This document shows positions 57,806 through 62,558 of a stretch of 64,000 nt of DNA, piece after piece. The position numbers and the translations under genes are program-made. The notes beneath the pieces were generated by a model, which was not told where the DNA came from, did no database searches, and saw only the letters and a list, made by a program, of their open reading frames with translations. How positions within the stretch are numbered: position 1 is the stretch's first letter; each line of letters begins with the position of its first letter. Source of the DNA: Eledone cirrhosa (lineage: Eukaryota); NCBI GenBank assembly GCA_964016885.1, contig OZ024755.1, forward strand, positions 23,126,001-23,190,000, written 5' to 3'.

Positions 57806-60709
57806 TACCTCATTTTACTAGTCTCATTTTACTATATATATATATATTCATATATATATATATATATATATATATTTATATATATATATATATATATATT
57901 CATATATATATTCATATATATATATATATATATATATATTCATATATATATTCATATATATATATATATATATATATATATATATTCATATATATATTCA
58001 TATATATATATATATATATATATTCATTTATATATTCATATATATATATACATATATATATTCATATATTCATATATATATATATATATATATATATATT
58101 CATATATATATATATATATATATATATATATATATATATTCATATATATATATATATATATATATATATATATATATTCATATATATATATGTATATATA
58201 TTCATATATATATATGTATATATATTCATATATATATATATGTATATATATTCATATATATATATATATATATTCATATATATATATATATATATATATA
58301 TATTCATATATATATATATATATATATATATATATATATATATATATATATTCATATATATATATATATATATATATATATTCATATATATATATATATA
58401 TATATATATATTCATATATATATATATATATATATATATTCATATATATATTCATATATATATATATATATATATATATATATTCATATATATATATATA
58501 TATATTCATATATATATATATATATATTCATATATATATATATATATATATATATATTCATATATATATATATATATATATATTCATATATATATATATA
58601 TATATATATATATATATTCATATATATATATATATATATATATTCATATATATATATATATATATATATATATATATATTCATATATATATATATATATA
58701 TTCATATATATATATATATATTCATATATATATATATATATATATATATATTCATATATATATATATATATATATATTCATATATATATATATATATATA
58801 TATATATATATTCATATATATATATATATATATATATATATTCATATATATATATATATATATATATATATATTCATATATATATATATATATATATATT
58901 CATATATATATATATATATATATATATATATATTCATATATATATATATATATATATATTCATATATATATATATATATATATATATATTCATATATATA
59001 TATATATACATATATATATATTCATATATATATATATATATATATATATTCATATATATATATATATATATATATATTCATATATATATATATATATATA
59101 TATATATATTCATATATATATATATATATATATATTCATATATATATATATATATATATATATATATTCATATATATATATATATATTCATATATATATA
59201 TATATATATATATATATATATATATATATATATATATTCATATATATATATATATATATATATATATATATTCATATATATATATATATATTCATATATA
59301 TATATAGATATATATATATATATATATATATATATATATATATGAATATATATATATATATATGAATATATATATATATATATATATGAATATATATATA
59401 TATATATATATATATATATTCATATATATATATATATATATATATATTCATATATATATATATATATATATATATATTCATATATATATATATATATATA
59501 TATATATATATATTCATATATATATATATATATATATATATATATATATATATTCTATATATATATATATATATTCATATATATATATATGAATATATAT
59601 ATATATATATATATATATTCATATATATATATATGAATATATATATATATATATATATATATTCATATATATATATATGAATATATATATATATTCATAT
59701 ATATATATATATATATATATATTCATATATATATATATATATATATATATTCATATATATATATATATATATATATATTCATATATATATATATATATAT
59801 ATATATTCATATATATATATATTCATATATATATTCATATATATATATATTCATATATATATTCATATATATATATATTCATATATATATATATATATAT
59901 ATATATTCATATATATATATATATTCATATATATATATATATATATATATTCATATATATATATCTATATATATATATATATATATATATATATTCATAT
60001 ATATATATATATATTCATATATATATATATATATATATATATATATATATATATATGAATATATATATATATATATATATATATATATATATATGAATAT
60101 ATATATATATATATATATATATATGAATATATATATATATATATATATATATATATATATATATATATATATATATATATATATATATATATGAATATAT
60201 ATATATATATATATATATATATTCATATATCTATATATATATATATATATATATATATATTCATATATATATATATATATATATATATATATATATTCAT
60301 ATATATATATATATATATATATATATATATATATATATATATTCATATATATATATATATATATATATATATATATATATTCATATATATATATATATAT
60401 ATATATATATATATATTCATATATATATATATATATATATATATATATATATATATATATTCATATATATATATATATATATATATATATATATATATAT
60501 ATATATTCATATATATATATATATATATATATATATATTCATATATATATATATATATATATATATATATATATACATGTAAAGTTATATTTAAAATTGT
60601 TGGGTTACAACTAGTAAATATTTATAACTGATATAAAAGCACTCGACAAATACTTGGAGTATATTTACAATATTAAATAAATGGAAAACTATATTTATAA
60701 AACCATATC

Positions 60710-60775
60710 TATTTCATTATATATATTTCGGGGATATCATATTAACAATATGCTATGCCTTCATCAGACAAAATA
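60710..60775 (-). ncRNA. Type I hammerhead motif in the PLE pLTR
   Basis: tattttgt-CTGATGA-agg..catatt/aatatg..cc-GAAA-tatata-TA-atgaaata; 8-bp stem I with two G-U pairs. Confidence 0.68.
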
Positions 60776-60867
60776 CAATATAAACAGTTTTATAGATAAA
60801 TATATTCGACATACCGTAATAAACATCAACTTCATTTGAAGAGGTTCACTCTAGCAGTGAAAATACA

Positions 60868-62558
60868 GTGCCCAGGAAACCGAAGATCAATATGAAGGAC
60901 CACAAGAGGAATTTTGAGATTGACCTGCCAGTTAGATTAATCGCACCTTCAAAATCGGACCTGGGCAAATTAAGCAAAAACATTCTTGACAGGGTGATAC
61001 TGCAAATTAAGAACTTGGATTATGTATCTAACCTGAGCTTGTGGAAGGGAACCGGAGAGGTTGTTGAGTGGTTTAGGCAAATTAAATATGACAATAATAA
61101 TAGGTTTATTCAACTTGATATAGCTAACTATTATTCTTCTATTACCCCTAGTCTACTAAATAAGGCACTAAATTACGCATTCAAACATACGGACCTAACT
61201 AGCAAAGAAATGCATATTATATTATCGGCTAGGAAAACTTTGATAGAATTTGATGACAAATTATGGACCAGAGCAGATAGAGATAGCAATTTTGACATAA
61301 CTATGGGATCTTCCGACTCAGCTCAAGTAACTGACCTTGTGGGCTTATTTTTAATCAATTCGCTACATAGGAAAATACCTGGTACTACCGGAGGTTTATA
61401 TAGGGATGACATGCTTTTACTCATTAATAATAATAACCCTGAACTAAATAGAAAATGTAAACAAATTACAAAATTTTTTAATTACTTTAACCTTAAAATA
61501 GAAATTGAGAACAACCATAGAATAGTCAATTTCCTAGATATAACATTAAATCTCAACACATGTCTCCACTATCCTTTTCACAAGTTGAATGAAAACTTAA
61601 ACTATGTCAACTTTAACTCTAACCACCCCAGATCTGTCAAAAACACTATAGTAAACTCAGTCCAAAAGCGTATCTCTAGGATCTCGTCGAATAGAAAGAT
61701 TTTTGACGAAAAGGCCCAATACTATAATGATGCACTAGCTAGGGCAGGGTATGCTGATAAGATTGTGTACATAGATAATGATAAACAAACTAAACAAAGT
61801 AACAACTTTTTTAATTATGGCAACAACATTAACAACTATAATAGAAAGCATTACAATAATTCCAAAGGACAAAAAAGAAATAGAACTAGGAACATAATTT
61901 GGTTTGCCCCCCCTTTCTCACTAAACATTAAAACCCACATCGCTAAATTATTTTTCAAAGCTCTTGATAATCGCTTCCCTAGAACACATAGGTACCACTC
62001 AATCTTCAATAGGCATACAATTAAATTAACCTATTCATCCACCAAAATTTAGCACAAAATATTAATAGAATAAATAATAGGAACTTAAAAACTACTGATA
62101 ATAGCATAAATAATATACAAGTTAACAAATGCAACTGTAGAGATAGATCTAAATGTCCGTTAAATAACAACTGCTTAGTTAAAAATATAGTATACAATTG
62201 TAATGTTAATACTGACTCTAATTCTTTTAACTACGTCGGTTCCACATCGACGGAATTTAAACTTCGCTATAATAACCACAAGAATTCTTTCACAGATCCA
62301 AATAAAAAATCTTCAACGGCACTATCAGGTGTACTCTGGCAACTTAAGCTAGATAACGTTAGATATTCGACGGCTTGGAATATAGTCTCAAGAGGGATTC
62401 CTTTTAATCCATCCTCTGAGACATGTGACCTCTGCGCAGAGGAGATATTCTTTATACTAAAATCTAAAAATTCCCTTAACCTACGGACAAATTTATTCAG
62501 TTGTTGCAAACATAGATTAAACTCAACGTTTAAATATAAATTTAAATTTAAAATGTAG
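60868..62558 (+). CDS. PLE reverse transcriptase plus GIY-YIG endonuclease, 5'-truncated, one frameshift near 62046
   Basis: RT motifs IQLDIANYYSSI, FDITMGS, YRDD, NFLDITL, SNHP. After the shift: CNCRDRSKCPLNNNCL, NIVY..YVGST, FKLRYNNH, CDLC, CCKH; stop at 62556-62558. Confidence 0.88.

Follow-up and report, generated by a model that had tools for sequence, protein, structure and literature searches.

A 64,000-nucleotide stretch of the Eledone cirrhosa genome (contig OZ024755.1, positions 23,126,001 to 23,190,000; hereafter the window) contains a copy of a young, high-copy retrotransposon family that is a distinct member of a known group, the Hydra clade of Penelope-like elements (PLEs). Insertions of this family consist of two arms placed back-to-back in (TA)n sequence, each ending at one of two fixed sites, such that one end carries a short tail and the other does not. 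This mixed arrangement was found in 50 of the 51 insertions with two canonical ends, and two short ends were never found together. A non-coding retrozyme of 465 bp in the same genome obeys the same rule. The value of these results lies in the family-wide pairing rule and in the retrozyme that follows it, the window copy being an ordinary dead copy.

Pairing of ends in two-armed insertions

As the reference for the family we used an unchanged natural copy at locus L022, which encodes a 737-residue protein, P0051, in an intact ORF at C3:210944729-210946942. The unit is 3954 bp long and comprises a 135-bp 5' untranslated region (UTR), the open reading frame (ORF) and a 1.6-kb 3' UTR, with a hammerhead core at position 3853; an optional tail after the unit repeats the unit's first 92 bp. 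When the genome (3.0 Gb) was searched with the downstream frame of the window copy, described below, at least 150 matches at 98-100% amino-acid identity were returned, of which at least 19 lie in 738-codon open frames. The search for full-length copies proposed in a preliminary description of the window thus yielded intact 737-codon sisters, and, in the stretches retrieved, the frame stays open as far as codon 737 in 19 of the 26 copies that have a start, this sample having been selected in part for long frames. The best named homolog is an Argonauta protein.

We examined 76 stretches, 60 of them taken in match-list order with one per cluster and 16 picked earlier (the window locus, long frames and inverted pairs). 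These gave 75 clusters, and the 51 with two outward-facing canonical ends were counted. TA-rich 20-mers are present on both flanks in 47 of the 51 (60% rule). If each end were chosen independently, 50 mixed insertions out of 51 would have P = 2e-14. The sole tail/tail case, L100, has flanks that are inverted-identical over 565 bp, and we therefore regard it as a secondary duplication. Inverted-identical flanks are lacking in 48 of the 49 insertions tested, so that an assembly fold-back as the source of the two arms can be rejected for those 48. Three clusters were resolved with further stretches; two proved mixed and one ended at neither site.

The two arms of an insertion come from one source. 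At 220 of 254 variable sites the minor allele is found in both arms of the insertion, as against 7.6% between insertions, and the arms differ at 0.65 positions per kb, as against 8.1 between insertions. Neither the tailed nor the tail-less arm can consistently be the copy, given that the longer arm is the tailed one in 28 of 50 insertions and the tail-less one in 18, the remaining four having arms of about equal length. Arms can also extend beyond one unit, as they do in 12 of the 51 insertions. Where at least three segments overlap, variants are found either in all segments (5) or in one (7), but never in a subset, and at L025+26 a locus-private variant is present in both units of one arm as well as in the other arm. 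The arms overlap by 1-8 nt at 30 of the 51 junctions.

The same pairing is seen beyond this family. In a second Hydra family, whose protein is 41% identical to that of the first and which has many intact 758-codon frames, five of seven divergent pairs are mixed, and in a hammerhead family represented near 35 kb in the window all three pairs are. The retrozyme is non-coding and repeats in tandem, every unit bearing a canonical type I hammerhead (a predicted ribozyme). In the window it is represented by 1.8 units in a single arm that ends at the short site (50693-51525, plus strand). Its 19 stretches comprise 13 two-armed arrays with canonical ends, one with a degenerate end and five that are single-armed. 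All 13 canonical two-ended arrays are mixed, ending at unit positions 360-368 and 436-437, and one further two-armed array, with 18 segments in one arm, brings this to 14 of 14. Array-specific variants are present in all units of both arms, and 36 singletons were counted in 84 kb.

A candidate mechanism and its alternatives

The explanation that we favour, and consider reasonably likely, is that reverse transcription is primed from both nicked strands of the (TA)n target, with two fixed start sites on a single RNA, probably a circle, giving two arms of which one is tailed. In this scheme the GIY-YIG domain of the element would nick both target strands; one reverse transcriptase (RT) would begin at position 3954 of the unit and another at a point 92 nt to its 3' side, each start coinciding with a TGTA or CATA able to pair with the target. 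Both enzymes would run 5'-ward on the same template, the trailing RT displacing the leading cDNA, and on a hammerhead-cut and re-ligated circle they could pass the unit junction to give the upstream pseudo-long terminal repeat (pLTR), after which the two cDNAs would be joined by microhomology. For the retrozyme, machinery of this kind would act in trans. In the twin priming of LINE-1 (long interspersed element 1), two target strands likewise prime on one RNA, and the resulting inverted junction is joined by microhomology. In LINE-1, however, the position of the second priming site varies and the 3' end is not duplicated between the arms, whereas in the present family the two sites have fixed positions separated by 92 nt and the 3' end is present in each arm.

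The two-site start and the two-strand activity are, by analogy, carried over from another PLE clade. In vitro, a Poseidon element of the green anole, Poseidon_Ac (PAc), nicks and extends both strands of an AT-rich target, and its RT has two internal start sites, which delimit the tail (PMC11167929). PAc differs from the present family in its clade and in that its start sites lie in the ORF rather than upstream of the ATG, and the available part of the account does not state that each site is used once per insertion (PMC11167929). A circular template has been proposed earlier (PMC4209133, PMC7229834). The tail has been described as optional or often one-ended (PMC8557442, PMC11167929, PMC3846280, PMC4209133, PMC7229834, PMC13282606, bioRxiv 10.64898/2026.07.22.740005); in the parts of the literature searched we found no count of strict end pairing and no two-armed retrozyme arrays, although older Penelope papers or supplements may state the former. 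A search of sequencing runs with a stretch of the PLE listed no RNA run.

Several observations weigh against paired priming on a circle. The pairing count excludes 24 of the 75 clusters, which were dropped as single-armed, cut by a gap or edge, or deleted at their ends, and in the second Hydra family one pair is tail/tail and another has a non-canonical end. The arm ends lie within 25 nt of each other in 4 of 50 insertions, where 0.64 would be expected (36 of 10000 permutations), and one of these four, L035, has a palindromic junction of the kind that a fold-back also predicts. In the retrozyme, variant 15A occurs in mirrored units of both arms in L222, though it also turns up in unrelated units and at other loci. 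Arm identity could come partly from assembly polishing or gene conversion. Finally, for the anole PLE, hammerhead mutants did not affect in vitro insertion, and reads ending at the cleavage site were absent (PMC11167929).

A second explanation, which we regard as improbable, is that priming occurs once and is followed by self-priming or fold-back into a hairpin or palindromic intermediate, which the endonuclease then resolves with a staggered cut, leaving the tail on either arm; it is inspired by a published self-priming model (PMC3846280) and a remark on 'EN-mediated resolution' (PMC8557442). Such a process accounts for identical arms and for exactly one tail, and the excess of equal-length arms, the palindromic junction of L035 and the mirrored variant of L222 all speak for it, as does the division of locus-private substitutions, 28 of which are in both arms and 29 in one. 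In its simple form, however, it needs the tailed arm to be the longer. The tailed arm is the shorter in 18 of 50 insertions, the window copy included, and an extra trimming step would therefore be required. Moreover, a hand count gave about seven single-unit retrozyme variants that have no mirrored counterpart even though the mirror position is covered. Subset-shared variants number 0 of 12 in multi-unit arms, and the tail ends are RT start sites in vitro (PMC11167929).

Less probable still, in our view, is an explanation that needs no circle, in which twin priming takes place on a linear read-through of a tandem locus, or on two transcripts of the same locus that an asymmetric complex keeps together. 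Source loci with about two units in tandem do exist (L024+23 and L038+39), the in vitro reaction mainly used unprocessed RNA (PMC11167929), and shared variants demand only one source locus. Retrozyme arms of up to about 18 identical units, with a canonical hammerhead in each, would nevertheless require long uncleaved transcripts, and the private variant of L025+26, repeated within one arm and again in the other, also argues against a linear template. Two separate RNAs would give no obvious reason for the strict asymmetry.

The window copy and its protein

In the window, the family is represented by a short inverted arm and a longer direct arm. To their left, the target is a degenerate (TA)n array (54877..60575). 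The outer end of the inverted arm is the 92-bp tail (60574..60665, minus strand; a 100% match to reference positions 3955-4046 and 1-93), followed by an inverted copy of the element's 3' end (60666..60868, minus strand; reference 3752-3954), which meets the direct arm at 60868 with an overlap of 1 nt. Pattern and alignment place a minimal type I hammerhead motif, a putative ribozyme, at 60705..60781 on the minus strand, with its CUGAUGA core at 60767, its GAAA ending at 60726, a palindromic stem III and an A.C pair closing stem II. The antisense hammerhead that the preliminary description saw capping the 5' end is therefore confirmed, with its core at 60767-60726 and within an inverted arm that bears the tail. 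An Rfam search of the whole window at the gathering threshold gave no matches, hammerheads included; the minimum free energy (MFE) fold of this hammerhead is no better than those of shuffles (z -0.17), and for seven of eight hammerhead or tail stretches the MFE folds are not clearly better than shuffles. Within the (TA)n array there are also about 1.6 tandem copies of a 593-bp unit (56884-57832), in which a pattern search found no hammerhead core.

The direct arm runs from unit position 658 (codon 175) to 3954. Its first ORF, 409 codons from stop to stop, spans 60823-62052, and the part belonging to the element (60868..62047, plus strand) is a 5'-truncated frame of codons 175-567 of 737, covering a telomerase-like RT core (YRDD at 61399), the thumb and the linker. 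A second frame of 177 codons (62025-62558) overlaps the first, and holds a predicted Hydra-type GIY-YIG endonuclease (62130..62558, plus strand) with its CxCx5Cx5C linker at 62130, IVY at 62187 and YVG at 62232, together with R641, H645, CxxC, E700, CxH and a stop at 62556-62558. Both the ORF ending at 62052 and the continuation of the frame to a stop at 62558 are as had been described, and all of the motifs read from the downstream frame (CNC-x5-C-x5-C, IVY, YVG, KLRYNNH, CDLC and CKH) were found there. The element does not, however, end at 62558 as had been supposed. An AT-rich 3' UTR of 1.6 kb continues on the plus strand through 62559..64000 and on to C15:23190214, 214 bp past the window, where the copy has its tail-less end in (TA)n; a sense hammerhead lies near C15:23190113, about 100 bp before this end. 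Nor is the copy near-intact. It is truncated at the 5' end, as had been noted, beginning at codon 175 of the 737-codon ORF, and the absent codons 1-174 make up 24% of the ORF and include the RWR and first DKT motifs, so that the whole enzyme could not be encoded even without the frameshift. The window copy is a dead, recent fragment with intact sisters elsewhere.

The frameshift is a 1-bp deletion in an A-run (62044..62047, plus strand), where the copy has four A in place of the family's five. Five were present in all 19 other copies first checked, and among 102 family segments that cover the site, 101 have five and only the window's own has four, so that a single-base lesion relative to the family, as had been proposed, is upheld. 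Over ORF nucleotides 523-2214 the copy departs from the column-wise commonest letter only by this deletion and one private substitution, and these two differences in 1.7 kb bear out its description as a recent copy. It is possible, if somewhat doubtful, that the four-A site is an assembly error and that the true allele is open-framed. The deletion does sit in an A-run, and homopolymers hold 18 of the 28 indels seen in ORF segments of the family, but RT slippage favours homopolymers likewise. The deletion was found in only one of the 102 segments, and the copy is 5'-truncated regardless. Sequencing reads from four runs show the family norm at the A-run, and are not attributable to the window locus.

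Intact sisters encode a single ORF of 737 codons, an RT with a C-terminal GIY-YIG domain. A hidden domain of this type had been suggested for the downstream frame. Pfam gave no family for either window frame or for P0051, and for 43 homologs gave weak GIY-YIG matches in two (best E 0.008); a profile search of the sequences of solved structures returned nothing below E 0.5, and a single-sequence fold of the nuclease frame was unusable, with a predicted local distance difference test score (pLDDT) of 29. Building on an alignment of the 43 sequences, we obtained an AlphaFold2 model of P0051 with a mean pLDDT of 88.7. Telomerase RT ranked first for this model in both Foldseek and VIA-align (Z 15.8), and the best 50 Foldseek rows for the full model were all polymerases, while in VIA-align residues 613-715 matched I-TevI (1ln0) at rank 50, with Z 9.7, a root-mean-square deviation of 2.2 and 88 of 92 residues aligned. 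Compared by hhalign with 30 Pfam-positive GIY-YIG stretches of the genome, which has about 10,600 candidates for Pfam GIY-YIG, the domain scored a probability of 93.5 (E 2e-7; reversed control 0.03). ESM Atlas matches at 0.95-0.96 include GIY-YIG clusters, which we take as a lead only. The model match to I-TevI and the hhalign score thus support the hidden domain where Pfam is blank, and the downstream frame is a predicted GIY-YIG nuclease whose fold is seen in the model. Y617, G632, R641, H645 and E700 are invariant in the 43 sequences.

The published motifs of the Hydra clade are RW[KR], DKT, a CxCx5C linker, no CCHH, and CxxC and CxH by the E/N (PMC8557442). In an intact sister, RWR is at 37-39 (40 of 43 homologs have the W and 35 have K or R) and DKT at 118-120 (D and K in all 43, T in 37). 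C596, C604, C610, C694, C697, E700, C721 and H723 are invariant in the 43 sequences, and C598 is present in 42. CCHH is absent from P0051, which has no CxxC between IVY and YVG, unlike the genome's other PLE nucleases. A hammerhead motif is predicted in the family's terminal repeat by pattern and alignment. In an RT tree of 36 rows, 18 of them from the 50 homologs, the family falls in a clade (97/95) of proteins with Hydra motifs, apart from the genome's CCHH-type PLEs and LINEs, though the tree lacks a named Hydra reference and long branches meet in it. Presence of the clade's motifs and absence of CCHH agree with the earlier assignment to the Hydra type rather than to Penelope/Poseidon. Penelope/Poseidon, Neptune and Nematis are rejected on the lack of CCHH in the nuclease, and Naiad/Chlamys on its C-terminal rather than N-terminal position. 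Residues 486-509 of P0051 form an asparagine-rich, low-confidence insert between thumb and linker, and N-rich inserts have been described in rotifer PLEs (PMC3846280). An Oculina record, P0024, has a Hydra-like RT joined to leucine-rich repeats in one annotated protein, and may be a gene-model fusion.

Among the closest known systems are the described Hydra-clade PLEs, for example Hydra-1_Obim of Octopus bimaculoides, which shares with the family a single ORF, a C-terminal GIY-YIG, the Hydra motifs, a hammerhead and a (TA)n target (PMC8557442). By eye, the proteins are homologous, having SDKTNNLY and GLYRDD in common, and are distinct, many residues differing (PMC8557442). The present unit of 3954 bp with a 1.6-kb 3' UTR exceeds the 'generally <3 kb' given as typical, though not strict, for the clade; its tail is 92 bp rather than 30-40 bp; and it shows a full pLTR with tandem and inverted architecture, where Hydra-1_Obim is listed as 'no pLTR' (PMC8557442).

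Other hammerheads and the mobilisation of the retrozyme

The preliminary description put the window copy forward as a candidate mobiliser of the hammerhead elements around it. For most of these the proposal is unsupported, the majority of the window's other hammerheads being the ends of PLEs from different families; what stands is that the retrozyme shares the family's footprint, though not its sequence. The pair at 14827-15236 is a miniature two-armed insertion of the second Hydra family, with one tailed and one short end. The hammerhead near 28 kb (about 27950-28340) comes from the 3' end of a PLE that bears CCHH, and 12 of 20 loci match the C-terminus of that PLE. The hammerheads at about 39750-40000 and 49570-50090 look, from their sequence, like the same CCHH-type family. 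A further hammerhead element lies at about 41150-41400, beside a fragment of the 28-kb family's end, and at L130 there is an 893-residue open frame related to CCHH-type PLEs. At 34570-34855 is a two-armed remnant, with one tail, of an 86%-identical sister subfamily, whose hammerhead closes stem II with A-U where the young subfamily has A.C. The neighbouring 34870-35324 holds a hammerhead element with two arms and a tail of about 140 bp. Its copies have at least 1.3 kb of upstream sequence in common; a comparison of 20 stretches of this 35-kb family with three Hydra proteins found no directly linked ORF. Four loci (L031, L127, L036 and L247) represent two or more additional Hydra-like RT families, along with further PLEs of the CCHH type.

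The retrozyme itself resembles the metazoan non-LTR retrozymes in its non-coding tandem units, in the canonical type I hammerhead that each of them carries and in its highly paired circular fold (PMC7229834; bioRxiv 10.64898/2026.07.22.740005). Its own circular fold is strongly paired (z -9.4 against 40 shuffles), and none of 20 loci has a PLE ORF. The unit, at 465 bp, is longer than the approximately 170-400 nt reported for metazoan retrozymes. Local growth by unequal crossover is discussed in the preprint 10.64898/2026.07.22.740005, whereas the two-armed arrays with PLE-type paired ends seen here point to insertion in one step. A G-to-A change at unit position 15 recurs in non-adjacent units and at several loci (L222, L287-L288 and L290), as at a mutation or sequencing hotspot.

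That this Hydra family is the trans-acting driver of the retrozyme is, in our estimation, unlikely, although the two share a (TA)n target and a two-site, two-arm footprint, and have the most alike top copies among the families sampled (99-100%, against 88-99% in others). No sequence common to the retrozyme and the family's end was detected: their alignment scored below all 200 shuffles, and blastn gave no match. Comparison of the retrozyme with five PLE-type ends showed no convincing similarity, the best being exceeded by 1 of 200 shuffles and driven by TA repeats, while a genome search with the 126-bp retrozyme end returned nothing and was uninformative. The tails differ in length (92 nt in the Hydra family, about 70 nt in the retrozyme), the genome has at least three other Hydra-like RT families as well as CCHH-type PLEs, and in a rotifer no cross-mobilisation is reported between the two PLE types (PMC3846280).

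The origin of the tandem and inverted structures of PLEs, and the mover of animal retrozymes, are stated as open questions in the field (PMC8557442, PMC11167929, PMC7229834), and in the parts of the literature searched we found no enzyme test of any Hydra-clade PLE. The family described here adds a member to a known clade and offers a useful lead on mechanism. In this genome a Hydra family that is very young and has many intact ORFs uses a simple (TA)n target and two putative start sites separated by 92 nt, and a retrozyme with the same footprint is expanding alongside it, so that both questions could be tested in one in vitro assay. We tentatively suggest that PLE integration may be paired, staggered twin priming on one RNA circle with both enzymes rolling, every insertion using the two internal start sites, one for each nicked strand, and that animal retrozyme arrays may be single-step products of it, here possibly driven by the young Hydra family. 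If so, a single mechanism would account for the pLTR, for the 5' inverted copy and for the tail that has been called 'optional', and mobilisation of retrozymes by PLEs would have left a direct signature in the genome.

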